From positions 12,115 through 76,114 of the forward strand of contig JBLNDL010000043.1 of the NCBI GenBank assembly GCA_050261575.1: a DNA stretch of 64,000 nucleotides. The letters are read 5' to 3'. Below are positions 21,109-36,857 of this stretch, piece by piece; position 1 is the first letter of the stretch, and the number at the start of each line of letters is the position of its first letter. The position numbers were made by a program, and so were the translations under genes. The notes beneath the pieces were generated by a model that saw nothing but the letters and a program-made list of their open reading frames with translations, ran no database searches and was not told the origin of the DNA. The DNA comes from Sphingomonadaceae bacterium (GTDB taxonomy: Bacteria; Chloroflexota; UBA6077).

Positions 21109-22200
21109 ATGGTGCGTGTGCTAGCGGTTGACGTGGGAACCGGGACCCAGGACCTGCTGCTCTTCGACAGCGAAGCCGAGCTCGAGAACTGCATCCAGAT
21201 GGTGATGCCCTCGCCCACGCAGTTGGTGGCCTCGCGGATCAGGCGTGCCACCGCCGATGGTGCCGGCGTCCTCCTCACAGGGGCGACGATGGGTGGCGGG
21301 CCGTGCGCCTGGGCTGCCGAGGAGCACCTGCGTCGGGGTTTGCCCCTGTACGCCACCCCGGACGCAGCACGCACCTTCGACGACGACCTGGACAACGTGG
21401 AGAGAATGGGAATCCAGTTGGTGGACGGGGAGTCCGCCCCCGGCGAGCTTCGCCGCATCGAGATGGCCGACTTCGACTACCAGGCCATAGCCCGTGCCGT
21501 AGAGGCATTCGGCGTCGAGATGGAGGTCGACGCCGTCGCCGTGGCGGTCTTCGATCACGGCGCCGCCCCGCCCGGCGTGAGCGATCGCGCCTTCCGCTTC
21601 GAGTACCTCGCCGACACGGTTCGCCGGAACGATCTCTCGGCCTTCGCCTACCTGCGCGATGAGATCCCCGCCCGCCTGACCCGGATGCGCGCCGTGGCGT
21701 CGAGCGTGCCCCCCGATCTCCCGCTCCTGGTCATGGATACCGGCCCCGCCGCCGTCCTGGGGGCGATGGACGATCCTCGGGTGCGTGCCGCCTCCAGTGC
21801 GATCGTCGCCAACCTGGGCAACTTCCACACCCTGGCTTTCCACATCGCCGACGGCCGCATCCTCGGATTATTCGAGCACCACACGGGTGAGCTCTCTATC
21901 GAGAGGCTGGAAGGCTACCTGCGACAACTGGGTGACGGCACGATCTCCAACGAGCGGGTCTTCGCGGACAAGGGGCACGGCGCCCTGATGGCGAGCGCCC
22001 CCTCCTCGCCGCCGGAGCTGCTGGCGGTAGTCGGCCCCCGCCGGAAGCTCCTGAGTCGCTCGGCGCTGGCTCCGCACCTGGCGGTACCCCACGGAGACAT
22101 GATGCTTACGGGCTGCTTTGGGCTGCTTCGGGCGCTAGCACGCAAGCGGCCCGATTGGGTGCCCGCCATCGGGCCGTCGCTCATCGCAGGCCCGTCGTAG
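21109..22200 (+). CDS. DUF1786 family protein (putative ASKHA-fold ATPase-like)
   Basis: N-terminus MVRVLAVDVGTGTQDLLLFD resembles the phosphate-1 motif of actin-fold ATPases. Family assignment is from memory and only moderately confident. Confidence 0.5.
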   Translation: MVRVLAVDVGTGTQDLLLFDSEAELENCIQMVMPSPTQLVASRIRRATADGAGVLLTGATMGGGPCAWAAEEHLRRGLPLYATPDAARTFDDDLDNVERMGIQLVDGESAPGELRRIEMADFDYQAIARAVEAFGVEMEVDAVAVAVFDHGAAPPGVSDRAFRFEYLADTVRRNDLSAFAYLRDEIPARLTRMRAVASSVPPDLPLLVMDTGPAAVLGAMDDPRVRAASSAIVANLGNFHTLAFHIADGRILGLFEHHTGELSIERLEGYLRQLGDGTISNERVFADKGHGALMASAPSSPPELLAVVGPRRKLLSRSALAPHLAVPHGDMMLTGCFGLLRALARKRPDWVPAIGPSLIAGPS

Positions 22201-22222
22201 CGCTCCGCCAGACCGATCGTGA

Positions 22223-22272
22223 GGAGACGGCGTCGCCTCGACTCCGCCGGCGCTGGGGACGACGCCGTCTCC
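22223..22272. terminator. 13-bp inverted repeat between the convergent DUF1786 and gcvH-like genes
   Basis: ggagacggcgtcg (22223-22235) pairs with cgacgccgtctcc (22260-22272) around a 24-nt GC-rich loop. Confidence 0.3.
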
Positions 22273-22353
22273 GTGATCATCGCGGAGTCGGGATTGTCCC
22301 AGCCCCGCGGTCGGTGGCGCCAGCGCCGCCACGATGCCAGGGGATCGTCCCCC

Positions 22354-22797
22354 TCAGCCCTTCAGCAACCCCCTTCGGCGCCAGTCGTCGATCGATCGCT
22401 CCAGCCAGGGGTGAACGCCCTCGCCGTGCACCAGGGCGGCCAGATCGCGCGGCGCGTCCTCCGGCTCCAGCACGATCAGCCATCCCCGGTCGTATGGATC
22501 GGAGTTCAGCAGGCTGGGGCGGCTCATCACCTCCTCGTTCACCTCGACCACCCGGCCGGATATAGGCGCCTTGAGCGGCCCCACGTACTTCCCCGCCTCC
22601 ATGGTGCCGAAGGGCTTCCCCGCAGCCACCGGCCTGCCCGGAGGCTTCAGCCGGACCGCTCCCACGGTGCCGGCAGAGCGCTGCGCGAGGGCGTCCAGCC
22701 CGACCCTCGCTCTATCCCCCTCCAGACGTACCCATAGGTGGTCCTCTGGGTGGTAGTAAAGGTCATCCGGTAGCACAATGCCTTCAGCCTGAGCCAC
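22354..22797 (-). CDS. Glycine-cleavage H-protein-like lipoyl-carrier protein (GcvH family, with about 25-aa C-terminal extension)
   Basis: GTG start with AAGGAGG-N5 spacing; MAQAEGIVLPDDLYYHPEDHLWVRLEGDRARVGLDALAQRSAGTVGAVRLKPPGRPVAAGKPFGTMEAGKYVGPL...NSDPYDRGWLIVLE follows the GcvH pattern (YTKEHEWV...VGITDHAQ...ESVKAASD...NSDPYGEGW), with a candidate lipoyl-Lys in MEAGKY. Confidence 0.75.
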   Translation of the reverse strand: MAQAEGIVLPDDLYYHPEDHLWVRLEGDRARVGLDALAQRSAGTVGAVRLKPPGRPVAAGKPFGTMEAGKYVGPLKAPISGRVVEVNEEVMSRPSLLNSDPYDRGWLIVLEPEDAPRDLAALVHGEGVHPWLERSIDDWRRRGLLKG

Positions 22798-22919
22798 GAT
22801 AGCCTCCTTGGAAACCCTGAGAGATCCGTAGATATCGCAGATCGACGCAGATGGACGGCCACGAGATGCGCATCTGCGTGCTTCTGCGTGCGTCTGCGGA
22901 TCGGTTCTGTCGGGCGTCG

Positions 22920-24167
22920 TCAGTGTCCACACACCCCCGCCAACAGCTCCACGACGTCCACCACCTCGACGCCGGAGGCGCTCGCCTCCGCCCCTTGCGC
23001 GAGTGTCCGCACGCATTGGGGGCAGGCGGTCACGATGGTCCCCGCGCCGGTGCTGGCCAGTTGCGCCACCCGGCGGGCGGCCACCCTGCCCGCAAGGAGC
23101 GGGTCCACCATCTCCAGGTCGCCACCGCCGCCGCAGCACTCCCCGCGCTCCCTCCCCTCGTGGACCTCCACCAGCCGCACTCCCGGGAGGGTCTCCAGCA
23201 GCCGCCGCGGTGCGTCGTACACGCCACCGTTTCGCGCCAGGTCGCAGGGGTCGTGATAGGTCACCACCCGCTCCTCAGCCCCACCGGCCGCGGCGTGAGA
23301 GGGCGGCATCGCCCTCGACTCCGCCGACGTAGCTCTCGTCGCCGGCCCCCCGCTGGCCGAGCCATTGCGGCCATGCGGCAGCGGCAGCCGGCCCGCTTCC
23401 GCCAGCTCCAACAGGAACTCCGTGGAATGGAGCATCCGAACGCCGGGCAGTCTGGGGGCGTACTCCTCCATCCACATGATCCGGCAGGCCGGGCAGGTGA
23501 AGACCACCGTCCCCGCCTCCTTCTCCAGAAACCGAGTAACGTTGGCGTCGATCACCCTCTCGGCCCGGTCGCCCATCCCGGCCATCATCAACGGAAAGCC
23601 GCAGCACACCTCCCCCTCACCCAGCAGGGTGAAGTCCACCTGGGCAGCGGCCAGCAGCCTCACGAACGACTCCGCTATCCGCTGGACCCGCGGGGAAAAG
23701 GATGACGAGCAGCCGACGAAGTACACGACCTCGGCCCGATCCCGCTGGTAGAGGTCCGGCCGGGCGTCATCCATGTACTCTACCCACCCCGCCCTCTCCT
23801 CGTTGGGGTAGCCGTAGATGTTGCCGCTCGCGGCGACGTTGCCGCTCGCTGCAGCAATCCCCGAGGGAGCCAGATCGCGGGCAACGGTCTCTGCTCGAGC
23901 CCGCAGCCAGAACCTACGCAGGTCGATGTGAGTGGAGCAGACCCTCGTACAGTGTCCGCACATGGTGCACTGGTACAGCCGGACCATCTGGTCCGCCGAG
24001 GGGGGCCTGCCCTCGAGCAGCATCCTGGTGAGGTGGATCCTCCCCCTGGGGGAGCAGGACTCCCACCCGACGCCGGCGTAGGTGGGACAGACCGCCCGGC
24101 AGTAGCCGCAGTAGGCGCAGATGGTGGATTCGGCCTCCAACCCTTCGAAGAAGACGCGCTCACTCAT
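22920..24167 (-). CDS. Iron-sulfur oxidoreductase of the GlcF/GlpC/LutA/HdrD type (2x[4Fe-4S] ferredoxin motifs plus two CCG cysteine-rich domains)
   Basis: CAYCGYCRAVCP and CTMCGHCTRVC; CCG domain 1 VGCSSSF...CCGFP...CPAC; CCG domain 2 HDPCDL...CCGGGG...CPQC. The ATG overlaps the upstream stop (ATGA). Confidence 0.8.
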   Translation of the reverse strand: MSERVFFEGLEAESTICAYCGYCRAVCPTYAGVGWESCSPRGRIHLTRMLLEGRPPSADQMVRLYQCTMCGHCTRVCSTHIDLRRFWLRARAETVARDLAPSGIAAASGNVAASGNIYGYPNEERAGWVEYMDDARPDLYQRDRAEVVYFVGCSSSFSPRVQRIAESFVRLLAAAQVDFTLLGEGEVCCGFPLMMAGMGDRAERVIDANVTRFLEKEAGTVVFTCPACRIMWMEEYAPRLPGVRMLHSTEFLLELAEAGRLPLPHGRNGSASGGPATRATSAESRAMPPSHAAAGGAEERVVTYHDPCDLARNGGVYDAPRRLLETLPGVRLVEVHEGRERGECCGGGGDLEMVDPLLAGRVAARRVAQLASTGAGTIVTACPQCVRTLAQGAEASASGVEVVDVVELLAGVCGH

Positions 24168-25606
24168 CGCCGCCTCCCAAGGGCCACGAACACCGCCGCC
24201 AGCACCGCAGCCCCCGCATCGAACGTCACCGGCCACAGGGGGAACGGCGATCGGTACAGCTTGCCCGGGTTCATGATGCCCAGGGGGTCCAGCATCTGCT
24301 TGCGGCGCCGAAGCTCGGCCATCTGCCGCCGCGTGAACAGGCGAGACAAGTAGGGCGTGTTCCACAGCCCCACGCCGTAGGGCCGCGCGCCGTGCCGCGC
24401 CCCCAGGTTGTGCAAGCGCCTGGTGTAGCCTATCGCCGCGAGGTACTCGACGGCGTTCCGCTCGTCGGCAGGGTAGATGGACATCACCATCGCCCAGTCC
24501 GGGGCGACCGCCACCCCATAGGTGCCGATGGGCACCCGATCCCGGCGGGAGAGGGTCCGCACCGCCTCCAGGTACGCGCCCAACCCGCCCAGCGGCAGCC
24601 ACTGCTCGGCAGCCAGGAGGGAGGGTCCACCCCGCTTCGCCCGCAGGTGGAACAGGCGGGAGTTCCACTCCTCCAGCGCCGCCTCCGAGGAAAGCTCCCG
24701 TCCGCGTAGGCGTACCAGGCAGTCGTCGCCCCGCCGAACCTCCTCGGCGTCTCCCTGGAAGCTGGCCAGGAGAACGAGAGACCCGCCCGCGGGATCCACG
24801 GGGGTGTCGAAGCCAGCCTTCGCCAGCATGCCCAGGTATCCGGCATCGGCGAAGAAGAGGGTGAAGGGGCACGGCTGCCATATGGCAGCCGCGCGAAGGG
24901 CTTCGGCGAGTGCGGCGGGGCTATCGAAGGCGAGCAGATGGTGGGACTCCACCTCCGGCCTGGCCCGGACGGCCAGCTCCACCCCCGTCACCACGCCCAG
25001 CGTTCCCTCGGCGGATACGAACCAATCCAACGGTGGATCGGTGTCGCGGCTGACCGTTCGAAGTTCACCGTTGGGCAGCACCACCTCGAGGCTCACCAAC
25101 TGGTCGCCCACCGCTCCGTACTTCAGGCTGCCGATTCCGTGACCCTGGGTGCTGATCCAGCCCCCCACGGTAGCGGAGAGCGCGCTGGATGGGTAGGAGC
25201 GGACGGCGAACCCCTCGAGCCGCAGGGCGTCGTCCAGTTCGAACCAGGTGGTAGCCGGCAGCACGCGGACGATCCCCCGTGCGGGATCCAGGTCGATCCC
25301 GCCACGCATGTCGTTCACGTCCAGCACCAGTCCGCCTCGCGCGGGCACGGCGTCGTAGTAGCTGGTGCTGGCGGCTGCGCGGGGGGTCACGGCCACGTGC
25401 GACTTCGCGGCCTCGCGCACTACCTCAGCCACCTGACGGGCGCTCCGAGGGCGAACCACCGCATCGGGCAGCGTCCGAAAGAAGGGGCGAGTCAACAGGG
25501 CCGGAACAGGGGCCAGATCGCGGGAGTAGAGCGTCCGCTCGACGAGGTCGTCGGTAACGCGATCGGCCGGCAGCCCGGCCGCGATGGCTAGCTGCACTTT
25601 GCCCAC
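24164..25606 (-). CDS. FAD-linked oxidase (GlcD / D-lactate dehydrogenase family, PCMH-type FAD-binding) with hydrophobic C-terminal segment
   Basis: GTG start after GAGGAGG; the N-terminal FAD-binding domain pattern (AVTPRAAASTSYYDAVP...GGLVLDV) plus the GlcD-like C-terminal domain. Confidence 0.8.
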   Translation of the reverse strand: MGKVQLAIAAGLPADRVTDDLVERTLYSRDLAPVPALLTRPFFRTLPDAVVRPRSARQVAEVVREAAKSHVAVTPRAAASTSYYDAVPARGGLVLDVNDMRGGIDLDPARGIVRVLPATTWFELDDALRLEGFAVRSYPSSALSATVGGWISTQGHGIGSLKYGAVGDQLVSLEVVLPNGELRTVSRDTDPPLDWFVSAEGTLGVVTGVELAVRARPEVESHHLLAFDSPAALAEALRAAAIWQPCPFTLFFADAGYLGMLAKAGFDTPVDPAGGSLVLLASFQGDAEEVRRGDDCLVRLRGRELSSEAALEEWNSRLFHLRAKRGGPSLLAAEQWLPLGGLGAYLEAVRTLSRRDRVPIGTYGVAVAPDWAMVMSIYPADERNAVEYLAAIGYTRRLHNLGARHGARPYGVGLWNTPYLSRLFTRRQMAELRRRKQMLDPLGIMNPGKLYRSPFPLWPVTFDAGAAVLAAVFVALGRRR

Positions 25607-27087
25607 ACCTCCTCAGCGCGATACGAACTGCGCACCAGTGGCGAGGAGGCGACCCCCTGGAAGCCCATCGCCAGAGCCACCTCCCGGTACCAGTCGAAGA
25701 CCGCGGGATGGATGTAGTCGACCACTTCCTGCTGGCGCGGGCTCGGCTGCAGGTACTGGCCGATCGTCAGTAGGTCGCAGCCGACGCGCCGGAGGTCGCG
25801 CATCGCGTCGACCACCTCCCCGCACCTCTCCCCCAGCCCCACCATCAACCCCGACTTGGTCTTGAGGCCTCGCCTCCTGGCCCAGGCCAGCACACCCAGC
25901 GACCGTCGGTAGCTGGCTCTGGCCCGCACGGAGCCCGATAGCCGCTCCACCGTCTCCAAGTTGTGGTTGAACACGTCGGGCCGGGCATCGGCCACCGACT
26001 CCAGGGCAGACTGCGACCCGCCGAAGTCGGGCACCAGCACCTCCACGATCGCCTCGGGCAGCCTCCGGCGGATCGCCCGGATCGTTGCCGCGAAGAGCCC
26101 GGCGCCACCATCCGGAAGGTCGTCCCGTGCCACCGAGGTGACGACAACGTGGCGCAGCCCCAGCCTGGCGGCCGCCTCGGCGACCCTGGAAGGCTCCTCT
26201 GGGTCCGGAGGGCCCGGCCAGCCCGCCCTCACGTTGCAGAAGCGGCAGTGGCGCGTGCACACATCTCCCAGCACGAGGAAGGTCGCCGTGCCCCGACTCC
26301 AGCACTCCCCCAGATTCGGGCATGCCGCCTCCTCGCAGACGGTGTGAAGGCCAAGCCCCGCCACCACCGCCTCGACGGGCGCCGTCGCCTCCTGGGCAGC
26401 CATCGCCATCAGCCACGGTCCTGGGGTCCTCCGCGGCTCCACCTTTCGCCCGAAGATCCGGGCAAAGGCTCCTACGAAAGCATCCTCGACCTCCTCGATG
26501 CCGATCCTGCGCCCCAGGATCGCTCGCATGGATGTGACCCCGCGATCGGCCAGGCCGCAGGGCACTATCGTCCCGAAGGCCGCCATGTCCGGGTCGACGT
26601 TCAGGGCCACGCCGTGGGTCGTTACCCTATCCCGCACCGCGATGCCCACGGCCGCGATCTTCTCTCTGCCGACCCAAACACCCGGGTAGCGCTCGACCCG
26701 CTGGGCGACGATGCCCCACCCCTCCAGCAGATCCAGCACCACCTGCTCCAGCCGCCACAGGTAGCCGTGTAGGTCGCGGTTGGGAAGCCTCAAGATCGGG
26801 TACGCCACGAGCTGGCCGGGGGTGTGGCAGGTGGCGCGGCCGCCCCGCTCCGTCTCAACGACCTCCACGCCCAACACCCGCAGCCGGTCGCGAGGCACCC
26901 GCAGGTCCTCGATGCCGCCACCACGCCCCAGCGTGACCACGTTCGGGTGCTGCACGAGGAGCAGACAGTCCCCGACGTCGTCCCGCCGACGCGCCTCCGC
27001 CAGACGCTGCATCAACCGCAGGGCCTGGCGGTATCCGACCACCCCCATCCGAAGCAGGTATACGGGATCGTGCCGAGGCCCCATCAC
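25588..27087 (-). CDS. Bifunctional fusion: octanoyltransferase LipB (N-terminal about 215 aa) fused in-frame to lipoyl synthase LipA (C-terminal about 280 aa)
   Basis: LipB blocks (LLLVQHPNVVTLGRG, CHTPGQLVAYPIL, GVWVGREKIAAVGIAV) run without an intervening stop into LipA blocks (GLHTVCEEAACPNLGECW, CTRHCRFCNV radical-SAM CxxxCxxC). The start overlaps the lpd stop. Confidence 0.8.
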   Translation of the reverse strand: MMGPRHDPVYLLRMGVVGYRQALRLMQRLAEARRRDDVGDCLLLVQHPNVVTLGRGGGIEDLRVPRDRLRVLGVEVVETERGGRATCHTPGQLVAYPILRLPNRDLHGYLWRLEQVVLDLLEGWGIVAQRVERYPGVWVGREKIAAVGIAVRDRVTTHGVALNVDPDMAAFGTIVPCGLADRGVTSMRAILGRRIGIEEVEDAFVGAFARIFGRKVEPRRTPGPWLMAMAAQEATAPVEAVVAGLGLHTVCEEAACPNLGECWSRGTATFLVLGDVCTRHCRFCNVRAGWPGPPDPEEPSRVAEAAARLGLRHVVVTSVARDDLPDGGAGLFAATIRAIRRRLPEAIVEVLVPDFGGSQSALESVADARPDVFNHNLETVERLSGSVRARASYRRSLGVLAWARRRGLKTKSGLMVGLGERCGEVVDAMRDLRRVGCDLLTIGQYLQPSPRQQEVVDYIHPAVFDWYREVALAMGFQGVASSPLVRSSYRAEEVWAKCS

Positions 27088-28451
27088 AGCCTCGGCACGA
27101 ACAGCGCCTGCCCGAGGACAGCTCGCGCCGATTCCACGACGCTCTCGCTCAGGGTGGGATGGATCCGGAGCGACCAGGCGACATCCTCTGCAAGTGCCTC
27201 CAACTGCAGGGCCATGGCCGCCTCGGCGATCGATTCGGTCGCCCTGTGGCCGACGATGTGCACTCCCAGCAGCCTTCCACGCTTCCGATCGGCCACCAGC
27301 TTGACCCCTCCGTCCATCTCCCCAAGCCCCATGGCCCGCGGATTGGTGGATAGGGCCACGTTGGCCACCTCGACGTCGTATCCGGCATCGACGGCCTGAT
27401 CCTCGGTGAGGCCGACGGCAGCCACCTCGGGGACGGAGAAGGCGTAGCGTGGCACTATCCGTCGATCCAGCCGCCGGTCCTTCCCCATGGCGTTCTCCGC
27501 GGCCACCAGCCCCCCTGCCGTCGCCAGGGAGGAGTACATCGGATCACCGGTTGCGTCCCCCACGGCGTAGAGCCCCGGCACGTTGGTCTGCTGACGGTCG
27601 TCCACCACTACCGCGCCATCCTGGAGCCGGACTCCCGTCTCCGCCAGCCCGAGGTCCAGGGTTGCCGGCACCCTGCCGCACCACAACAGCCGGTCGGCCA
27701 CGATCTCCCTCTCGCCCCTCGGGCCCGACAGTGTTACCCTCAGGCCCTCCGAGCCACGCTGTGCCGCCCGCACCGTCGCGTTGCCGATAACCTCGATCCT
27801 CTGCCCCTGCAGAGCGGCCTGCAGCCGCTGTCCTATCTCGTAGTCCTCCTCAGGCAGTGGGTATGGCCCGTCCACCACCAGGGTCACCCGGCTACCCAGG
27901 GCGGCGTACAGGGTCGCGAACTCGACCTCCGAGGGTCCCCCGCCCCAGATGGCGAGTCGCTCGGGCACCTTCTCTAGCTGCATGGCCTCATCGGGCCGCA
28001 GCACCTCATCGACCCCCGGGGGCAACGGCGCCCACCTCGCCCCCGTGGCGAGGATCACGGCCCGGCTCGCCTGCAGCCGCCGGCCATCGACCTCCACCGT
28101 CCGGAGGTCCACCAGCCGGGCCACACCCTGCACCACCTCGATGCCGAAGGTGGGAAGAAGACCCGCCATCCCCTCCCGCAGCTCGGAGACGATCTGCTCT
28201 TTGCGGGCGATCATCTTCGGAACGTCCAGGCTCGCCGGGCCCACCCGGACACCCATCTCCTCGGCCTGTGCGACGCGCCGATACAGCTCGACGCTCGCCA
28301 GGAAGGTGGTCAGGGGAATGCAGTTCCGGTTGACGCAGTTGCCGCCCAGCTCCGCGCGCTCCACCAGGGTCACCTGTGCGCCCAGTTGCGCCGCCCTCGC
28401 CGCCGCCGCGGTCCCGCCCGGCCCTCCACCGATAACGATCACGTCTGGCAT
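27084..28451 (-). CDS. lpdA: Dihydrolipoyl dehydrogenase (E3)
   Basis: MPDVIVIGGGPGGTAAAARAAQLGAQVTLVE...GGNCVNRNCIP (redox disulfide), plus NAD and interface domains. Confidence 0.9.
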   Translation of the reverse strand: MPDVIVIGGGPGGTAAAARAAQLGAQVTLVERAELGGNCVNRNCIPLTTFLASVELYRRVAQAEEMGVRVGPASLDVPKMIARKEQIVSELREGMAGLLPTFGIEVVQGVARLVDLRTVEVDGRRLQASRAVILATGARWAPLPPGVDEVLRPDEAMQLEKVPERLAIWGGGPSEVEFATLYAALGSRVTLVVDGPYPLPEEDYEIGQRLQAALQGQRIEVIGNATVRAAQRGSEGLRVTLSGPRGEREIVADRLLWCGRVPATLDLGLAETGVRLQDGAVVVDDRQQTNVPGLYAVGDATGDPMYSSLATAGGLVAAENAMGKDRRLDRRIVPRYAFSVPEVAAVGLTEDQAVDAGYDVEVANVALSTNPRAMGLGEMDGGVKLVADRKRGRLLGVHIVGHRATESIAEAAMALQLEALAEDVAWSLRIHPTLSESVVESARAVLGQALFVPRL

Positions 28452-28488
28452 CAGACCCTCCAGTATTCCGTCCCCGGCAGCTCTTCAC

Positions 28489-29823
28489 TCACAACAGCAG
28501 GCGGTACGGGTTCTCGATCAGTTCCTTCAGAGTCCGCATGAACTCGGCTGCAGGAGCGCCGTCCACGACGCGGTGGTCTATGGTGAGACTCAGCACCATC
28601 GTGGACCGCCTCGCGATCTCGTTCTCGTGGATCACCGGCTTCTCTGCGATGCGCCCCACACCCAGGATGGCAACCTCGGGCGAGTTGATGATCGGGGTGA
28701 AGCCGTCGACGCCGTAGGAGCCCAGGTTGGTGATAGTGAAGGTGCTTCCGGTCACCTCGTCCACCGAGAGGCTGCCGTCCCTCGCCCCCTGTGCCAAGCG
28801 TCGCGACTCCTGGGCTATCTCCCGCACCGTCCGCCGGTCGGCGTCCCGAAGGACGGGCACGATCAGCCCCTCCTCCAGCGCCACGGCGATGCCGATGTGG
28901 ATAGGCTCCAGCAGATGTATCTCGTCGCCGATAAGGACCGAGTTCAGCAGCGGATGGCTTCGAAGGGCCTTGGCGACGGCCTTCACCAGCAGGTCGTTGT
29001 AGGTCAGGTCGAACTCGGCTTTCAACTGGCTCCGCAGCCTGACCAGCTCGGTCGCGTCGACCTCCATCTGGATGGTGAGCTGGGCCATGGTGTGGAGGCT
29101 CTCCACCATGTGCTCCGCGATGGCCTGGCGCACGCCGGCGAACGGGATGGTGCGCGCCACCGACCGTGCCTCCGCCGCGCCCGGGGCTTTCTTTCGGGCT
29201 TCGGCGAAGCGCACCACGTCCTCCTCGGTGATACGGCCTCCCAAGCCGCTACCGCGAACCTCGCCCAGGTCCACACCGCGTTCGCGGGCCAACCGCCGTG
29301 CAGCGGTGGTGGCCAGCACCTCCGCGGGCACCCCCGGCCGCTCGCTCTCGGCGACGAAGCGGAGCACGTCCGCCTCCGTCACCATGCCGTCGGCGCCGGA
29401 GCCCAACACCTGCCCCAGGTCGATCCCCCTCTCCTTGGCCAATCGGCGGGCGGCCGGTGAGGCCACGACGAAGGTCGCACGAGCCTGCACCGCCTGGGCC
29501 TGCTGGGTGGCCAGCGCCGGGGCTGCGGCGACGGGCTCGACTGCCGCCGGAGCCTCGGGCACCTCTTCCACGGAGGGAACCGCCTCGCCAGGCACGGTCA
29601 CGAAGCCGAGGGTAGCCCCCACCACCCGGGTCTCTTTCGGCCGGGTCACGATCCTCAGGATGCCTGCCGACGGAGCCGTCAGGGTGTAGGTGATCTTCTT
29701 GCTCATCACCACGGCGACCGGCTCATCCTTGGCTACCTCGTCACCCTCCTGTTTGAGCCACTTGGCTACGATACCTTCCTTCATCGCCATGCCCAGCTTG
29801 GGCATGATGATCTTGGTTGCCAT
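28489..29823 (-). CDS. Dihydrolipoamide acyltransferase (E2; single lipoyl domain, PSBD, catalytic domain)
   Basis: MATKIIMPKLGMAMKEGIVAKWLKQEGDEV (lipoyl-Lys in GMAMKEG), two E3-binding-like segments, and a C-terminal DHRVVDG catalytic motif. Confidence 0.85.
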   Translation of the reverse strand: MATKIIMPKLGMAMKEGIVAKWLKQEGDEVAKDEPVAVVMSKKITYTLTAPSAGILRIVTRPKETRVVGATLGFVTVPGEAVPSVEEVPEAPAAVEPVAAAPALATQQAQAVQARATFVVASPAARRLAKERGIDLGQVLGSGADGMVTEADVLRFVAESERPGVPAEVLATTAARRLARERGVDLGEVRGSGLGGRITEEDVVRFAEARKKAPGAAEARSVARTIPFAGVRQAIAEHMVESLHTMAQLTIQMEVDATELVRLRSQLKAEFDLTYNDLLVKAVAKALRSHPLLNSVLIGDEIHLLEPIHIGIAVALEEGLIVPVLRDADRRTVREIAQESRRLAQGARDGSLSVDEVTGSTFTITNLGSYGVDGFTPIINSPEVAILGVGRIAEKPVIHENEIARRSTMVLSLTIDHRVVDGAPAAEFMRTLKELIENPYRLLL

Positions 29824-29889
29824 CGCCCAATTCCTCCGATCGGGGTCGGGACCGATGGCTGGGGGGGCCGAGTGCGGTCCCCCCAGCTC

Positions 29890-30894
29890 TCAGTCCTGGT
29901 CGAGACTACCGAGCCGATGGAAAACGCCCGAGCGGGCCGCCACCTCCATGCACCGGGTGAAGTCCACCACCCGGGGACCGTTCATCGTTAGCCGAACGGA
30001 GAGGGTGGGATGCCCGTAGATCTCGATCTCACGCTCGCCGTCCAGCGCCACCGTCGAAACCTGGGAGTCCAGCACCACGGACTCCCCCAACGATAGAAGC
30101 CGGTGCTCTCGGACATCGACTGGGGTCAGCAACCCTGGGGCGACCGGCGCCAGCACACGGGAGCCACCCTGCCCGAGAGCCAGATAGATCCCTTGGCCGT
30201 CCTTGCTGGTCAAGTGTCGAAAGCAGCTACCCAGCGACGAGATGCCGATGTTGCCTGGCTCCGACCTGGCCAGGACGATCTCCCGCACCCGGCTGAGGTC
30301 CCATATCGCCCTGCTGGCCACCCAGAGATCGGTACTCGTGACCGCGTCGATCAGTGCGATGTCGACCAACTCCTCGTCGAGGAACAGTTCGAGCCGCTTA
30401 GCTCGGTAGGTCACATCGTCGACCGGCACGGCGCCTGTGGCCACGAGGCCAGCGACCATCCCGGCGATCGTGCCCTCCACCATGCTCGGGAATACGTTGT
30501 TGGTGCCTGTGGAGATGGGGACGAGTGGGATCGCCCCACACCCCTTCGCCACCACCCTGTTGGTGCCGTCCCCACCGAGCACCACGATGCACCCTGCCCC
30601 CATCCGGCTCAGCAGCGCCGCGGCCTCGGAGGAGTCCCTGTCTGTGCCGCTCACCGCCATGTCCATCACCTCGGCCCGCAGGGACCGGAGGCCCAGGCCG
30701 TCCAGCGCCCGCAACCCGAGGCCATAGCTATCGGGCATGATGCTCGCTCGATCGACACCCAGCCTATCCAGGGCCAACATCACCCGCCGCAGGATGCTGA
30801 CCTTCTCGTTGTTGCCGAACACCGACGCGTGGGCCACCAGACGGCGAATATCCCTTCCGGACGCCGGGTTGGCGATGATCCCGACTGTAGACAT
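29890..30894 (-). CDS. ATP-NAD kinase / diacylglycerol-kinase-fold protein (AcoX-like) embedded in the 2-oxoacid dehydrogenase operon
   Basis: ATG at 30894 with GGGGAG RBS; GGDGT motif (VVLGGDGTNRVV) and NAD-kinase-like core. Its position between E1beta and E2 recalls acoX of acetoin dehydrogenase clusters. Confidence 0.65.
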   Translation of the reverse strand: MSTVGIIANPASGRDIRRLVAHASVFGNNEKVSILRRVMLALDRLGVDRASIMPDSYGLGLRALDGLGLRSLRAEVMDMAVSGTDRDSSEAAALLSRMGAGCIVVLGGDGTNRVVAKGCGAIPLVPISTGTNNVFPSMVEGTIAGMVAGLVATGAVPVDDVTYRAKRLELFLDEELVDIALIDAVTSTDLWVASRAIWDLSRVREIVLARSEPGNIGISSLGSCFRHLTSKDGQGIYLALGQGGSRVLAPVAPGLLTPVDVREHRLLSLGESVVLDSQVSTVALDGEREIEIYGHPTLSVRLTMNGPRVVDFTRCMEVAARSGVFHRLGSLDQD

Positions 30895-31105
30895 GAGAGG
30901 CTCTCCCCAGGGTCGGCGCTCCCGATCGATGGAACGGCCGGCCAATCTAGAAACATCGCGGAGGGCCGGCCGCACTCGCTCGCACCACGCCGCCGGCCCG
31001 CCCAGTTCCTGCCACCCGCGGCCGGGAGCGAGGGGCGTGACGCTGCGCCCGCACCACGGCCCCCCCGCCTTTCGGGGGGCGCCCCCCGCCCCACATCACA
31101 ACGGG

Positions 31106-32134
31106 TCAGCCCACCGCCGTCCTCACCGCCGCGGCGATCTTGCCGGCGCTGGGGATGTATGCATCCTCCAGCACCGGGCTGAAGGGCACCGGAGTGTGGG
31201 GTGCCGTCACCGCCACGGGTGGCGAGTCGAGGTAGCCGAAAGCCTGCTGAGCCGCCAGAGAGACGATGTCGTTGGCCACGCTGCAGCGCGGGTTGTCCTC
31301 GTCCACCACCACCAACCTGTGGGTCTTCTTCACCGACTGCAGAATGGTGTCCTCGTCCAGGGGCGAGAGGGTCTGAGGATCCACCACCTCAACCTGTATC
31401 CCGTCAGCCGCCAGCTCCTCGGCGGCCTCCATGGCAAAGCTCCGCATCCGGCCTATCGCCACCACCGTCGCGTCCTTGCCCTCCCGGGCGATCTCCGCCT
31501 GGCCCAGAGGCACGACGTAGTCGTCCTCGGGCACAGGACCCGAGCTGTCCAGCAGCACCAGGTGTTCGAAGAAGATCACCGGGTCGTCGTCGCGGATGGA
31601 TGCCGCCAGCAGCCCCTTGGCGTTGTACGGGGTGGACGGCACCACCACCTTGAGGCCCGGCATGTGGGTGAAGACCGAGTAGAGGACGGCGGAGTGCTGC
31701 GCGGCGGCTCTGAAGCCGGCGCCATACAGTGTGCGGATGACCATCGGCACCTTGGCCTTGCCGCCGAACATGTAGCGGATCTTGCCGCCCTGGTTGAAGA
31801 TCTGGTCCATGCAGACGCCGAAGAAGTCGACGAACATCAGCTCGGCTATCGGCCGCAACCCGGTGGAGGCGGCGCCCACCGCCGCACCGATGAAGGACGA
31901 CTCGCTGATGGGGGTGTCGATGACGCGGGTCCGGCCGAACTCCTGCACCAGCCCCTTGGTGACCCCCAGGTCACCGCCCCACGCCTCTTCGCCCTTCTCC
32001 TCCAGGTGGGTCCGCGCGCCGCCCGCCACATCCTCGCCCATCAGGATCACGGTGGGATCCCGGCGCATCTCCAATCGCATGGCCTCGTTGAGCGCCTCGC
32101 GGAAAGTCAGCGTTCTCGTCGTCACAGTGGTCAT
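31106..32134 (-). CDS. 2-oxoacid (acetoin/pyruvate-type) dehydrogenase E1 component beta subunit
   Basis: Transketolase-like pyrimidine-binding and C-terminal domains (VILMGEDV, FFEHLVLLD). Confidence 0.9.
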   Translation of the reverse strand: MTTVTTRTLTFREALNEAMRLEMRRDPTVILMGEDVAGGARTHLEEKGEEAWGGDLGVTKGLVQEFGRTRVIDTPISESSFIGAAVGAASTGLRPIAELMFVDFFGVCMDQIFNQGGKIRYMFGGKAKVPMVIRTLYGAGFRAAAQHSAVLYSVFTHMPGLKVVVPSTPYNAKGLLAASIRDDDPVIFFEHLVLLDSSGPVPEDDYVVPLGQAEIAREGKDATVVAIGRMRSFAMEAAEELAADGIQVEVVDPQTLSPLDEDTILQSVKKTHRLVVVDEDNPRCSVANDIVSLAAQQAFGYLDSPPVAVTAPHTPVPFSPVLEDAYIPSAGKIAAAVRTAVG

Positions 32135-32147
32135 CGCGCGTCCTCCC

Positions 32148-33116
32148 TCACCGATAGCTGACGTAGACGTCGGTCAGCACCTCTTCCGGAGCCGGATAGG
32201 GCGCCGCCTCGGCAAACTGGACGGCTTCGTCCACAGCCCTCTTCACCTCGGAGTCGATCCGAGAGATCTCGTCCTCCGAGAGGAGACCCCGCTCGAGCAC
32301 CCTCTTCCTGAAGCCGTCGATCGGGTCCCTCGCGCGGTTCTTGGCCCTCTCTTCCTCAGTGAAGTAGCTCAGGTTGTCGCCCTGGAAGTGGCCGTAGTAG
32401 CGGAACGCCTTGCACTCGATGAGCGTAGGGCCCTCACCCCGACGGGCGCGCGCAATCGCCTCGCCCGCCGCCTCGAAGACCGCGAAGAGGTCGGTGCCGT
32501 CGATAGCAAAGCCCGGCATGCTGTAGGCCGTGGCCCGGTCGGCGATGTCGTGGACAGCGGCGTGGTAGTGGGCAGGGGTGCTCTGCGCGTAGCCGTTGTT
32601 CTCGCAGACGAAGACCACCGGCAGCTTCCATATGGAGGCAAGGTTCATCGACTCGTGCATCGTGCCCTGCTCGGCCGCGCCGTCCCCGAAGAAGCAGACG
32701 GTCACCTGATCGGTACCCTTGACCTTCGCCATCAGGGCCGAGCCGCAGGCCAGCGGCCCGCCGGCCCCGACGATGCCGTTGGCACCCAGCATCCCCTTGG
32801 TCACGTCGGCGATGTGCATCGAGCCGCCCTTGCCCTTGCAGGCGCCCGGCGCCTTTCCGTACAGCTCAGCCATCATCGCCTTCAGGTCGACGCCCTTGGC
32901 TATGCAGTGCCCGTGACCGCGATGGGTGGAGGTAATGAAGTCTCGGTCGGTGAGGTGGGCGCACACCCCCACGGCGATCGCCTCCTCGCCTGCATAGAGG
33001 TGCACGAAACCCGGTATCCTACCCTCTGCAAACAAATCGGCCGCCCTGTTCTCGAACTCGCGTATCAGCCGCATCCGTTCGTAGATCCAGGGCAGTCTCT
33101 CCTTGAGTTCAGTCAT
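32148..33116 (-). CDS. 2-oxoacid (acetoin/pyruvate-type) dehydrogenase E1 component alpha subunit (TPP-binding)
   Basis: TPP motif GDGAAEQG...NN (CFFGDGAAEQGTMHESMNLASIWKLPVVFVCENNGYA); the roughly 320-aa size and FRYYGHFQGD are typical of AcoA-like E1alpha. Confidence 0.9.
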   Translation of the reverse strand: MTELKERLPWIYERMRLIREFENRAADLFAEGRIPGFVHLYAGEEAIAVGVCAHLTDRDFITSTHRGHGHCIAKGVDLKAMMAELYGKAPGACKGKGGSMHIADVTKGMLGANGIVGAGGPLACGSALMAKVKGTDQVTVCFFGDGAAEQGTMHESMNLASIWKLPVVFVCENNGYAQSTPAHYHAAVHDIADRATAYSMPGFAIDGTDLFAVFEAAGEAIARARRGEGPTLIECKAFRYYGHFQGDNLSYFTEEERAKNRARDPIDGFRKRVLERGLLSEDEISRIDSEVKRAVDEAVQFAEAAPYPAPEEVLTDVYVSYR

Positions 33117-33299
33117 GGTCAGTCTCCTTCGTCCTCTCAGACGGGCGGCAAGCCCGTCGCTGCTAGGCGCATGGACAGACTCTCTGCTCCACCATCAAGG
33201 AAAGCTCCGGCCGGCCAATTCCGCTCTCGCGTTCGGGCTCCTAAAGAAGACGGGCTCGAACCAGTTGACACCTCCTTTCTCTCGACCCAGCGCCCCTCG

Positions 33300-33318
33300 G
33301 GCAAAGCGCCACTTTGCC
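33300..33318 (-). promoter_or_regulatory. Small hairpin inside the 310-nt untranslated gap between lplA and the E1alpha gene
   Basis: ggcaaag-cgcca-ctttgcc (7-bp stem). A second 7-bp hairpin overlaps the lplA stop codon (33422-33440). Confidence 0.2.
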
Positions 33319-33426
33319 ATGGGTCCGCGGGGACACCGCCTCCCCACCGATCCGCCCCTGTGGCCGCCTCCTCGAGGCCGCGCTGCTGTCGGCGACTGCG
33401 GAGCGGACCACGCAGGACCGGATGCC

Positions 33427-34518
33427 TCATCCGGGATCGTCGCCGCGGTGCCCCTCCGACAATGCCAGCAGGACGGCTGCGATCTCCTCCGGCGTCACCC
33501 CCGGCGACTGGAGGTCCAACTCCCCGTACACCCCCTGCAGGCGAGGTAGCAGCGCTTCGGGCCGCAGTTCAAGCCCCCGAACCGCCTCCTCCAGTGCGTC
33601 GAGTCCGGCAGCAGGCGACATGGTGAAGTCGCCGGAGATGGTCAGATCGTCGATACGCCCATCGCGGACGGACGCCGTGACTCGGATCAACCCGCCCGGC
33701 GCCTTGCGCTCAGCCTCAACCACCTGCACGCCCTCGTGTATCTTCACCCCATCGCGCTTGAGGCCGCCCCGCAGATACAACCATCGGCGCGACGACAGCC
33801 GCTCGTCCCACCGGCGAGCCGCCGCCTCCTCGCGCTCCGTCAGAGCACCGGGCACGATCTCTCGACCTAGGAGGGCGGACAGCTTGTCGAGGTAGAGGCC
33901 CTTCACGGCTTCACGATCGGGAAGCCGCCCTAGCTCCCGGGACATCGTGGTCACGTACTCTCGGAGGCTCCGGTACACCTTATCCCGCATCTTCTCGGAT
34001 GGCAGCCTCAGGACACGCACCATCGCCTCGTGGTCGAAGTCGAACATCAGGCTGCCGACCACCACCTCTGCCTCCCCCATGCGTGCAGCACCCGTCCCCC
34101 CGATCTTCCTGCCATCCACGTGCACGTCGTTGATCGGCCGGTGGTAGGCAGCTATGCCGAGGGCCCTGTAGGTGTCCACCAGCGCCTGCACGTGGAGGGC
34201 GAAGCGGCCCTCCACCGACGATGGGAGATGCTCCCGATGGAAGACCCACTGGGTGAAGAGCTGGTCGCGGTCCAGGTAGACGGCGCCGCCGCCCACCTCC
34301 CGTCGATAGACCGGAAGGCCGTGGGCCCGGCAGAAGGCCATATCCACTTCCTTCTCCAGGTCCTGGTGGAAGCCAATGCACACGTAGGGGTCGATGGGGG
34401 ATACGAGAACGAGGGAGTCTGGGGTCTCGGGGAGCATGGCATGAGCCAGGGCGTGGTAGATCGACTGCGACCGCACCGGCGGGACAAATCCAAGGTCCAG
34501 GAGACGAATGGCATCCAT
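33427..34518 (-). CDS. lplA: Lipoate-protein ligase A (BPL/LPL catalytic domain plus C-terminal domain)
   Basis: ATG with GGAGG 5 nt upstream; VLVSPIDPYVCIGFHQDL...RREVGGGAVYLD...KIGGTGAARMGE (lipoyl-AMP binding Lys region). Confidence 0.85.
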   Translation of the reverse strand: MDAIRLLDLGFVPPVRSQSIYHALAHAMLPETPDSLVLVSPIDPYVCIGFHQDLEKEVDMAFCRAHGLPVYRREVGGGAVYLDRDQLFTQWVFHREHLPSSVEGRFALHVQALVDTYRALGIAAYHRPINDVHVDGRKIGGTGAARMGEAEVVVGSLMFDFDHEAMVRVLRLPSEKMRDKVYRSLREYVTTMSRELGRLPDREAVKGLYLDKLSALLGREIVPGALTEREEAAARRWDERLSSRRWLYLRGGLKRDGVKIHEGVQVVEAERKAPGGLIRVTASVRDGRIDDLTISGDFTMSPAAGLDALEEAVRGLELRPEALLPRLQGVYGELDLQSPGVTPEEIAAVLLALSEGHRGDDPG

Positions 34519-34644
34519 TACCGCCTCCGGAGGACACCCGGAACGTCGGGCAGCGACTATCGGAGACCCGAAACGCTCATGACAGGTACCCCAGATGGCG
34601 CTCGCCCGGCATGGTCCAGACCGCCATCTGCCTGCCGAGGAACC

Positions 34645-34673
34645 ATTCTAATGATGATGTGGGGTTTATGCAA
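34645..34673 (-). promoter_or_regulatory. Weak sigma-70-like promoter candidate upstream of lplA (TTGCAT-N17-TAGAAT on minus strand)
   Basis: In an AT-richer patch 130-155 nt upstream of the lplA ATG; the -35 is a poor match. Confidence 0.2.
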
Positions 34674-35036
34674 GCGCCTCTTCTGTTTTCCAGTGGCTAT
34701 TACCTGTAGCCTGCGTTCCTGAACCGCGCCAACGATGACCCGCGCGCGGCCTCAGATGAAGCGCGTCACGAACCACTTCAACTATATCAATGCTTCGCCC
34801 TCGATTGGATGCTATAGTCAATGGTGCATGACGATATCATGCGATTCCTTAACACAGTGCACCGGCTGCCATACCCTTAGCCTTCTCTATGCTCGCCACT
34901 ATCATCGAGGAACGCTGTCCTGTCGAGATTCGGGCAGAGAGCGAAGATGGGCTAGCACCGCCAGAGACTCGCTCTGGCGGCAACGTCGGCGCCACGCTGG
35001 CGACTGAAGGGGGACGATGGAACGCAGAACATCCCT

Positions 35037-35147
35037 CTGGGCCACCACGGGGACCCGGAAGACATCGCCAACGTGGTGGCGTTCCTCGCCTCGGACAAGG
35101 CGAAGCTCATCACGGGGCAGGCCATCAACGTGGACGGGGAATGGTGA
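35037..35147 (+). pseudogene. Remnant of an SDR oxidoreductase gene (C-terminal 36 codons only)
   Basis: [39 protein letters not shown] is a textbook SDR C-terminus (compare [37 protein letters not shown]), but nothing SDR-like is left upstream. Confidence 0.5.
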
Positions 35148-35160
35148 AGGCCTGCATCCA

Positions 35161-35240
35161 AGCAGGTATCTCTAGTCCATATCGACTTCTCTGGCGGGAA
35201 ACGCGTACGCTGTCTGGAGATGCCTGATTAGGAGTAACGC
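35161..35240. repeat. Copy A of a roughly 75-bp repeat with imperfect terminal inverted repeats (caggtatctc...gagatgcctg)
   Basis: About 74% identical, ungapped, to the copy at 37018-37095; the two copies directly flank the glycoside hydrolase gene. Confidence 0.5.
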
Positions 35241-35288
35241 GGCCGTCCCTAAACGGGGCTTCGCCCGGCGCCACCAACGCCGCACCTC

Positions 35289-36857
35289 TCACGGACGGCG
35301 AGACAGGAGGATCCGGGCGGCCCCACCGAGGGACGGATGCTCTCGGGGCTTCAGCACCACCTGCTGAGGGTTGGGCTCCTCGACCTCCGCGCCGAGCGCA
35401 TCGAAGACCCGCTTTCCGGCCGGCAGGGGCACCGTGACATCCCTGCCGGCCACTTTCGACCAGACGACGGTGAACTCGACGCCGTCGCTTCGAGTCCCGT
35501 CCACCCTCATGGTCTCTTCGCTCTCCGACCACGAAACACTGGAGATCCTCGCCAGCAGTCTCGCCATGGTGGTGAGCGCCAGGTAGGAGGGCTTCTTCAC
35601 CAGACGTCCGTTCTCGATCCTCGTCAAGGAGAACCTGTCTTCGCCGCCGTCCAGGGCTGAGTAGAAGTACAGCCGGTCCATCATGCCGGAGGCGACGGCG
35701 AGGGATGTGATCTGCGGGATGTACCCCTCCGCGAGCTGTCCATCGGTGGCCGGCGTCTGCCCCGAATTGACAGTGGGGTTACCCACTTCTGCCAGGTCGA
35801 ACTTGAGGTCGTTGAGCCCCACCTTCGCCATGGTCTCGCGCATCCGGGTCAGCCTCTGCAGGAACCCGTCTATCGGGCCGTAGTAGTGGTCCGCCACCCT
35901 CTGGAAGGGGAGGAACTTCGAGGAGCCGTTCGCCCACCCCGGTAGGAGCGAGTCGAAGGTACCGAGCAGCTTCTGCAGATACTCGCCCTCCCCGAAGTAG
36001 GCCATTCCCGGCAGCGCGAGTTCCAGATCGTCGAGGCCCTCTCGCTTCTTGACATCGGCGGCGGTCGAGAGGGTCTTCACCAGTTCTGGGAGGTTGTCCC
36101 GCCACGCCGCGCCCGGATCGTTCGGCTCGTTGCCCCAGACGATAGTCCGAACGCCGTACCCGTGCAGCGCACGGATGATCCTGGCCACCTTCTCTGGGCT
36201 CAAGGGTCTGTCGAGTTCCACCACCGCCGTGGCATGGCGGCCGTTGGACATCGCCCAGACGGCACGGTCGAAAACGCGCCGCTGCACGTTCTCCAGGTAG
36301 TCGGTGCCCCGGAACCCCCCGACGAGCGGGCCGTTGCCGAACAGCAGGAACCGTTGTCTTCCATCGTCGACGAACACCATGTGGGGCGAGATGGCAAACC
36401 GGAAGTGTCCGATGTCTAGCTCTTCCTCTTCCTCCATCAGCGGCCAATTGTTCAACCCGAGCCTGGACTCGGTCAGGGGGGTATCGCCGAGGAGCTGTTG
36501 GAGGGGGCTGGGCGCGTGTCCCCCGCGCCTCTCCTCTGCCTCTCTTCGCGCCATACAACTCGCCACAGCCTCGCTCGGCGACCGCGCCGCGATATCGAAC
36601 GACAGCGGGTTCCCCCTGGCGACGCAGGCCTCGATCATATCCCGCTCCGACTGCGAAGCCCCTTCGAGGGTATCGGGCAACTGGGTTATGACCGTCGGCA
36701 GGGTAGGCGGAAGGGGGGGTTGCGCCCAGGGTCGAGCGAACGCGGCACTAGGGTTCGCAACCACACCGACGGCAAGCGCCGACAGGCTGCCAAGCAACCG
36801 GCGGCGGCTGACGACACCGTTCCAGGATCGAATCGCAGTCTCCAACATCTCCACCAT
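35289..36857 (-). CDS. Tat-secreted glycoside hydrolase (clan GH-A-like, NEP motif)
   Basis: ATG at 36857 with GGAGGAGG; twin-arginine signal (SRRRLLGSLSALAVGVVANPSAAFA); VRTIVWGNEPN catalytic-acid motif. Confidence 0.7.
   Translation of the reverse strand: MVEMLETAIRSWNGVVSRRRLLGSLSALAVGVVANPSAAFARPWAQPPLPPTLPTVITQLPDTLEGASQSERDMIEACVARGNPLSFDIAARSPSEAVASCMARREAEERRGGHAPSPLQQLLGDTPLTESRLGLNNWPLMEEEEELDIGHFRFAISPHMVFVDDGRQRFLLFGNGPLVGGFRGTDYLENVQRRVFDRAVWAMSNGRHATAVVELDRPLSPEKVARIIRALHGYGVRTIVWGNEPNDPGAAWRDNLPELVKTLSTAADVKKREGLDDLELALPGMAYFGEGEYLQKLLGTFDSLLPGWANGSSKFLPFQRVADHYYGPIDGFLQRLTRMRETMAKVGLNDLKFDLAEVGNPTVNSGQTPATDGQLAEGYIPQITSLAVASGMMDRLYFYSALDGGEDRFSLTRIENGRLVKKPSYLALTTMARLLARISSVSWSESEETMRVDGTRSDGVEFTVVWSKVAGRDVTVPLPAGKRVFDALGAEVEEPNPQQVVLKPREHPSLGGAARILLSRRP

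Follow-up and report, generated by a model that had tools for sequence, protein, structure and literature searches.

A 64,000-nucleotide stretch of DNA with a Chloroflexota lineage (hereafter the window; contig JBLNDL010000043.1 of NCBI GenBank assembly GCA_050261575.1, positions 12,115 to 76,114) carries on its minus strand a gene, 25588..27084, in which two consecutive enzymes of lipoate assembly are joined in one polypeptide of 498 codons plus stop. The octanoyltransferase LipB makes up the N-terminal and the radical-SAM (S-adenosylmethionine) lipoyl synthase LipA the C-terminal part, and both domains score above curated cut-offs. Judged from its sequence and from a structural model, this LipB::LipA gene very probably encodes an active bifunctional enzyme, which would octanoylate a lipoyl domain and then sulfurate the attached octanoyl group. 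The fusion lies directly after the E2 and E3 genes of a 2-oxoacid dehydrogenase cluster and thus stands alongside a lipoate-dependent E2, as the original prediction made on this DNA had it.

That prediction also described a single open reading frame in which LipB is followed by LipA with neither stop nor linker, and this is essentially right. The minus-strand interval 25588..27087 is listed as one open frame of 499 codons from a GTG, and its translation contains no internal stop. The ATG at 27084-27082 is nevertheless a likelier start than the alternative GTG at 27087. It shares one base with the stop codon TGA (27086-27084) of the E3 gene, forming the overlap TGATG, as is typical of translationally coupled genes, and it is the start used in the public gene calls (P0001, L081-L084), which give a 498-residue product identical to that of the window. 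The 5' end of the gene reads CTGTGATGGG. In what follows, positions of Pfam and NCBIfam domains refer to the 499-residue (GTG) numbering, while catalytic residues and cluster ligands such as C250 follow the 498-residue (ATG) numbering. NCBIfam matches LipB at residues 8-215 and LipA at residues 219-497, two complete domains in succession, which leaves a gap of at most about five residues between them. The two halves scarcely differ in G+C content at third codon positions (GC3; LipB 0.86, LipA 0.88), and base composition thus does not point to a chimeric origin. The LipB and LipA motifs cited earlier, including the radical-SAM CX3CX2C, were all recovered in this frame.

The LipB domain (26443..27063, residues ~8-214 in ATG numbering) is recognised over residues 8-215 by two equivalog models, PRK14345 (179.5 against a cut-off of 155) and TIGR00214 (134.6 against 83.55). 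Pfam finds a single domain in this half, LplA-B_cat at residues 19-209 (7.5e-44). The half aligns with the solved enzymes of T. thermophilus (2QHS, 1.1e-45) and M. tuberculosis (1W66, 1.6e-38), and the corresponding part of an AlphaFold2 model superposes on 2QHS with a template-modelling (TM) score of 0.95 and a root-mean-square deviation (rmsd) of 1.4 Å. The characteristic motifs are a Lys in GREKIAAVG and a Cys in VPCGL. Lys142 (codon 26659-26661) and Cys176 (codon 26557-26559) align with the Lys and Cys of 1W66 which we take to be the catalytic dyad of the M. tuberculosis enzyme, and both are invariant in a 26-sequence alignment of fused homologues at 57-90 % identity, the same alignment on which the model was built. 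The equivalog scores, the Cys/Lys dyad and a LipB fold lacking the C-terminal accessory domain of LplA all place this half in the octanoyltransferase family (EC 2.3.1.181).

The LipA domain (25597..26433, residues ~218-496 in ATG numbering) matches the lipA equivalog TIGR00510 at residues 219-497 with 358.2 against a cut-off of 310.25, and contains a Pfam Radical_SAM domain at residues 272-431 (9.6e-19). Its radical-SAM motif CX3CX2C, formed by C276, C280 and C283, reads CTRHCRFC (26236-26259). The auxiliary-cluster motif CX4CX5C, formed by C250, C255 and C261 (26302-26337), reads CEEAACPNLGEC. The C-terminal LipA motif RSSY (R485-S486-S487) is encoded at 25621-25632, and its serine has been described as a ligand of the auxiliary cluster in human LIAS (PMC12246082). 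All six cysteines and R485-S486-S487 are invariant across the 26 fused homologues and have aligned counterparts in M. tuberculosis and T. elongatus LipA. This half aligns with residues 43-319 of M. tuberculosis LipA (5EXI, 2.8e-81) as well as with T. elongatus LipA2 and human LIAS, and its part of the model superposes on 5EXK with a TM score of 0.91 and an rmsd of 1.8 Å. The equivalog score together with CX3CX2C, CX4CX5C and RSSY identifies it as a lipoyl synthase (EC 2.8.1.8). By every family feature that can be read from sequence, then, neither domain departs from the ordinary pattern of its family. Both enzymes belong to textbook biochemistry, and new chemistry is not expected from their union.

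The fusion is not confined to one assembly. The identical protein is encoded, with the same neighbours, on contigs from four sequencing runs (SRR24035584, SRR24035586, SRR24035587 and SRR36106227). A search for relatives, recommended with the original prediction, yielded at least 120 clusters of homologues that share the architecture, these being all of the best-scoring ones: the best 120 matches in a collection of 5.8 billion proteins are 56-100 % identical, measure ~420-550 residues and all carry both Pfam domains. Where they are named, these matches come mostly from metagenome-assembled genomes (MAGs) of Chloroflexota, Anaerolineae, Anaerolineales or Chloroflexales, a taxonomy taken from source names. 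GCA_046328525.1 and GCA_040960625.1 are examples of MAGs with the fusion. The identical NCBI entry P0001 is named “MAG: Sphingomonadaceae bacterium”. Since a 90 %-identical relative and most of the other named relatives are labelled Chloroflexota or Anaerolineae, the Sphingomonadaceae label probably reflects faulty binning or labelling of the source MAG. Gene context is conserved as well: five loci, with fusion proteins sharing 58-100 % identity with that of the window, have E2, E3 and the fusion together.

At the junction (26398..26460), the LipB end …FARIFGRKVEP is followed by RRTPG and then by the LipA start PWLMAMAAQ…, of which W224-L225 are invariant in the 26 aligned homologues. The whole-protein AlphaFold2 model has a mean pLDDT (predicted local distance difference test) of 90.2 and a pTM (predicted TM score) of 0.91, the latter suggesting a defined packing of one domain against the other; no solved structure spanning both parts was among the structure-search matches. 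Residues 216-254, directly after the LipB domain, align to human LIAS from residue 72 onwards. In crystal structures of LIAS with the H-protein, residues 66-110 form a “belt” wrapped round the carrier protein (PMC12246082). The alignment within this belt would mean that LipB is tethered at the very element with which LipA docks its carrier.

The evidence so far establishes an intact gene, complete domains and the conservation of catalytic residues, architecture and gene context; that both domains are active, which carrier they modify and whether their union brings a kinetic gain are inferred. In the scheme that we propose, the LipB domain would load octanoate from octanoyl-ACP (acyl carrier protein) onto Cys176 as a thioester, and a transfer partnered by Lys142 would deliver it to the lysine of a lipoyl domain, that of the E2 encoded two genes upstream or that of a GcvH encoded downstream. 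The LipA domain, using its radical-SAM [4Fe-4S] cluster and two molecules of SAM, would then abstract hydrogen at C6 and C8 and insert two sulfur atoms drawn from the auxiliary [4Fe-4S] cluster. Fusion would fix the two activities at a 1:1 ratio, and an octanoylated lipoyl domain leaving LipB would meet LipA at high local concentration, a hand-off by proximity that needs no tunnel. Translational coupling to E3 would moreover tie the production of the assembly enzyme to that of its substrate complex. The original prediction had suggested substrate channelling, an idea to which the confident two-domain model and the alignment of the junction with the LIAS belt lend only indirect support; a hand-off by proximity at fixed 1:1 stoichiometry seems plausible and is favoured over true channelling.

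A number of observations weigh against or qualify the picture of two domains working in concert. Both active sites engage the same face of the lipoyl domain, at the turn that bears its lysine, which obliges the substrate to leave one site before binding at the other; fusion by itself therefore implies no true channelling. Insertions of ~10-47 residues occur at the junction in 4 of the 26 aligned homologues, and the gap between the matched halves ranges from ~6 to 132 residues in more distant fusions. Such tolerance argues against a strict geometric requirement, and the model itself is less confident at the junction, where pLDDT drops to 73-78. The 64-kb window contains no further copy of lipA or lipB. 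Finally, no natural LipB-LipA fusion was found described in the literature searched, which included a 2023 survey of lipoate assembly (PMC10332631) and comparative-genomic papers.

The genes around the fusion, all on the minus strand, bear on which carrier is served. Upstream lie genes for an LplA-family protein (33427-34518; LplA-B_cat 1.6e-36, Lip_prot_lig_C 8.3e-08), a thiamine-diphosphate-dependent E1α (32148-33116; E1_dh 1.8e-98, TIGR03182 372.5, below the cut-off of 393.85), E1β (31106-32134; PRK09212 337 against a cut-off of 321), an AcoX-like protein with an NAD-kinase fold (29890-30894; 334 aa as called, although the open frame could reach 30975; NAD_kinase 6.3e-08), the E2 acyltransferase (28489-29823) and the E3 dihydrolipoyl dehydrogenase (27084-28451; Pyr_redox_2 and Pyr_redox_dim, TIGR01350 394, just below 408.8). 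Downstream follow a GlcD-like FAD-linked oxidase (24164-25597), a CCG-domain iron-sulfur protein of the GlcF/HdrD type (22920-24167) and an orphan GcvH-type lipoyl carrier of 147 aa (22354-22797; GCV_H 2.3e-30). The coordinates of the fusion, the oxidase, the CCG protein and GcvH, as well as the start of the AcoX-like gene, were mapped from the gene calls of locus L081. E3 and the fusion overlap by 1 nt, the fusion and the oxidase by 10 nt, and the oxidase and the CCG gene by 4 nt, so that these genes are almost certainly co-translated. A promoter and terminator scan of 21500-35500 returned sites no more numerous than in shuffled sequence and is therefore uninformative on operon boundaries. 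Rfam at its gathering threshold gave no match in the window.

The original prediction placed the fusion in an operon with lplA, which it called a salvage ligase. The co-directional cluster with E1α, E1β, E2 and E3 bears out the first statement in part, although the LplA-family gene is set off from E1α by 310 nt. As to the second, the protein has both the catalytic and the C-terminal accessory domain, and its closest solved relatives are lipoate-protein ligases (2e-21). With the ligase equivalog TIGR00545, however, it scores 126.4 bits against a cut-off of 280, a value with which the family assignment holds and which leaves room for either ligase or transferase activity. The “GcvH-like carrier” guessed at earlier has, in turn, a concrete counterpart in the GcvH gene. 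Its lysine lies in …MEAGKY…, whereas the usual context of the GcvH lysine is ESVKA. The E2, on which the fusion enzyme presumably acts, has one N-terminal lipoyl domain followed by E3_binding and 2-oxoacid_dh domains (Pfam: Biotin_lipoyl, two E3-binding stretches, 2-oxoacid_dh). Its candidate lipoyl lysine lies within …VVMSKKITYTL…, unlike the canonical context DKA.

The order E1α-E1β-AcoX-like-E2-E3-fusion is kept in relatives with fusion proteins at 58-74 % identity to that of the window. Oxidase, CCG protein and GcvH are likewise retained in three of four such relatives (L085, L087 and L088), which have an LplA-family gene at one or other end of the cluster. Across the five related loci, GcvH occurs downstream of the fusion in four, with neither gcvT nor gcvP beside it, and the FAD oxidase/CCG pair stands between the fusion and gcvH in four of the five contexts. 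As a guess, the pair could form a dehydrogenase of the D-lactate or glycolate type; a connection with the lipoyl carrier is also conceivable. The GcvH-type protein itself could act as a lipoyl relay or scaffold.

This last possibility leads to a different division of labour, in which the fusion builds lipoate on the cluster's GcvH and the LplA-family protein, acting as an amidotransferase, passes the lipoyl moiety on from there to E2. The recurrent orphan GcvH gene speaks for such a route, as do the conservation of the LplA-family gene in the cluster (directly after gcvH in L087) and its score below the ligase equivalog cut-off (126 against 280 bits). On the other hand, the C-terminal accessory domain is typical of ATP-dependent ligases and the solved relatives are ligases; moreover, locus L086 keeps the fusion with neither a GcvH nor an LplA-like gene in its cluster. 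Characterised bacterial LipB enzymes, as in the E. coli pathway, modify E2 domains directly. We regard this relay as a serious, though unlikely, alternative. Known systems of this kind are B. subtilis LipM-LipA-LipL and human LIPT2-LIAS-LIPT1. The window likewise encodes a GcvH-type carrier and an LplA-family protein, but its transferase domain is of the LipB and not the LipM type, and nothing in it points to GcvH as an obligatory intermediate.

A bolder extension of the same idea strikes us as rather improbable. Here LipB::LipA, the orphan GcvH and the LplA-family protein, as a transferase, would form a self-contained, operon-encoded module. The carrier would stay on the LipA belt while its lysine swings between the two active sites, the octanoyl intermediate would never be released, and the finished cofactor would be relayed to the acetoin- or pyruvate-type E2. 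If true, lipoate biosynthesis would gain with it a first natural example of a truly channelled intermediate.

Three further explanations would deprive the bifunctional enzyme of its meaning or its existence, and they fare worse. Translation might restart at Met226 or Met228, so that the halves are also made separately and the fusion carries no functional meaning. Two ATG codons do stand at the start of the LipA part, with a GGAGGA upstream of them. This element lies ~17 nt from the first ATG, too distant for a typical ribosome-binding site, and the full-length fusion would in any case remain the main product. The junction methionines are not conserved in the 26-sequence alignment, most homologues having VAPAPQ there. 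A conserved internal start was rejected on this ground, and the explanation as a whole is very improbable. Alternatively, one domain might be catalytically dead and do no more than dock the lipoyl domain. Nothing specific recommends this general possibility, which exists for any fused paralogue, and it was rejected as scarcely credible, given that the family shows no variation at any catalytic or cluster-binding residue of either domain and that both halves exceed their equivalog cut-offs. Least credible of all is that faulty sequencing or assembly, by losing a stop or shifting the frame, joined adjacent genes: separate neighbouring lipB-lipA pairs are indeed common, several of them sharing a frame that is broken by just one stop, as in L002, and odd chimeras such as the LipA-MurB protein P0258 occur among metagenomic predictions, but an identical 498-aa product from four independent runs, at least 120 fused clusters down to 56 % identity, the conserved W224-L225 at the junction and a GC3 uniform over the join led us to reject it. 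A stop codon or frameshift at the junction, the finding named at the outset as fatal to the fusion, is thus effectively excluded.

The bifunctional LipB::LipA enzyme remains the preferred reading, and related architectures show how often its two activities have been brought together. In a wider survey, 1.84 billion cluster representatives were searched, matches were sorted by BLAST against each half and the best 150 were classified. They comprise 62 LipB→LipA fusions, a few of them truncated, 7 fusions in the reverse order LipA→LipB (P0122, P0131, P0142, P0151, P0152, P0160 and P0171) and 81 LipA proteins without LipB, some of these ~620 residues long. Among the distant LipB→LipA representatives, names are given for members of Candidatus Sumerlaeota and Planctomycetota; the planctomycetal gene sits in an unrelated neighbourhood. 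Two of the reverse-order proteins, P0122 and P0151, consist of a complete LipA and a complete LipB above curated cut-offs, just as both domains are complete in the window protein. Their inverted order means that they arose independently, so that at least two fusion events must have occurred. The gene for P0122 (L091, 7974-9602) also stands directly after E2 and E3, with its start overlapping.

A third arrangement, LplA-LipA, is represented by NF053790 (bifunctional lipoate-protein ligase/lipoyl synthase), the sole curated fusion family of this kind in NCBIfam, which P0205 and P0219 match end to end. As in the window protein, a lipoyl-attachment enzyme of the same superfamily lies N-terminal to LipA, joining attachment to sulfur insertion. 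The N-terminal partner in NF053790, however, is an ATP-dependent ligase of ~330 residues, while that of the window is an ACP-dependent LipB. The window protein, at 366 bits, falls short of the 800-bit cut-off and matches through its LipA half alone (model positions 324-605), which places it outside this family. The LplA-LipA proteins P0205, P0219 and P0253 (~620 aa), although they match the model over its full length, score below that cut-off as well. The LipA-MurB chimera P0258 (625 aa) is probably incidental or an artefact. With reverse-order LipA-LipB and LplA-LipA fusions also in existence, the pairing of lipoyl attachment and LipA has been selected repeatedly.

How many times fusion took place is harder to say. 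In a neighbour-joining tree of 152 LipA domains, the fused state falls into 38 pure groups and requires 31 parsimony changes, which hints at recurrent gain or loss; the tree is too crude for counting events, and some of its singleton metagenomic “fusions” may be artefacts. Among GTDB species-representative genomes, none of the 80 loci returned was fused, in a scan biased towards generic LipA matches; 19 of these loci have adjacent separate lipB and lipA genes, and stand-alone lipA genes make up most of the set. The Chloroflexota MAG locus L002 (8220-8340) illustrates how easily a fusion can arise: lipB stops there at a TGA and lipA begins ten in-frame codons further on, so that a single substitution would, from the sequence, yield a fusion with a linker of ~45 residues.

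In principle, a LipB-LipA fusion is unsurprising: consecutive enzymes of a pathway are commonly fused, and lipB often lies beside lipA. In the two-protein systems of E. coli, M. tuberculosis and T. thermophilus, the folds, the Cys/Lys dyad, the Fe-S motifs and the order of reactions are the same, and the halves of the window protein align end to end with solved LipB (2QHS, 1W66) and LipA (5EXI, 4U0O). The difference is that the window has both in one 498-residue chain, with ~5 residues between them. As far as we could find, this architecture is abundant in sequence databases, yet apparently undescribed and uncharacterised. NCBIfam returned no dedicated LipB-LipA model, and such proteins are consequently named only for their second half, the source databases calling the fused homologues “lipoyl synthase” or “lipoic acid synthetase”. 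Genome surveys of lipoate metabolism would therefore score their hosts as lacking LipB, an annotation gap that the fusion exposes. A conserved natural fusion is, in addition, “Rosetta-stone” evidence that LipB and LipA work as a unit. It also offers a ready single-chain system in which to follow how the transferase hands an octanoylated lipoyl domain over to the radical-SAM enzyme, also by structural study of the two enzymes with their carrier.

The type of dehydrogenase complex served by the fusion is suggested by the AcoX-like gene, which is conserved between E1β and E2 in all five related loci. AcoX is typical of acetoin dehydrogenase clusters (PMC3543383). The best plasmid match of the window's protein (37.6 % identity over 93 % of the query, 8e-55) sits in an acoR-acoX-acoA-acoB-acoC cluster, which encodes a σ54-type regulator, AcoX, E1α, E1β and an acetoin-type E2. 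Linkage of an AcoX gene to E1α, E1β and E2, a feature of aco clusters, is thus found in the window too, and the complex may be of the acetoin dehydrogenase rather than the pyruvate dehydrogenase type. The E2, however, scores only 75 bits against a cut-off of 307 with the acetoin-type model NF011457 and has a classical 2-oxoacid_dh catalytic domain, so that acetoin and pyruvate both stay in play. A published precedent for cluster-encoded lipoate assembly is the acetoin cluster of Pelobacter carbinolicus, in which acoX and the genes for E1αβ, E2 and E3 are likewise accompanied by the lipoyl synthase gene acoS and by lipB (PMC3543383). In that organism acoS and lipB are separate genes, whereas in the window synthase and octanoyltransferase are fused. 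With its AcoX-like protein, orphan GcvH and FAD/CCG pair, the conserved cluster points to a dehydrogenase complex that uncultured Chloroflexota encode as one package with the machinery assembling its cofactor. In L087, a zinc alcohol dehydrogenase gene is inserted in the cluster next to the AcoX-like gene. On the plus strand of the window, adjoining the cluster at 18767-22200, lie genes for a GTP-dependent phosphoenolpyruvate carboxykinase and a DUF1786 protein (of the “putative pyruvate formate-lyase activating enzyme” family), neighbours that fit a pyruvate or C3-C4 metabolic setting.

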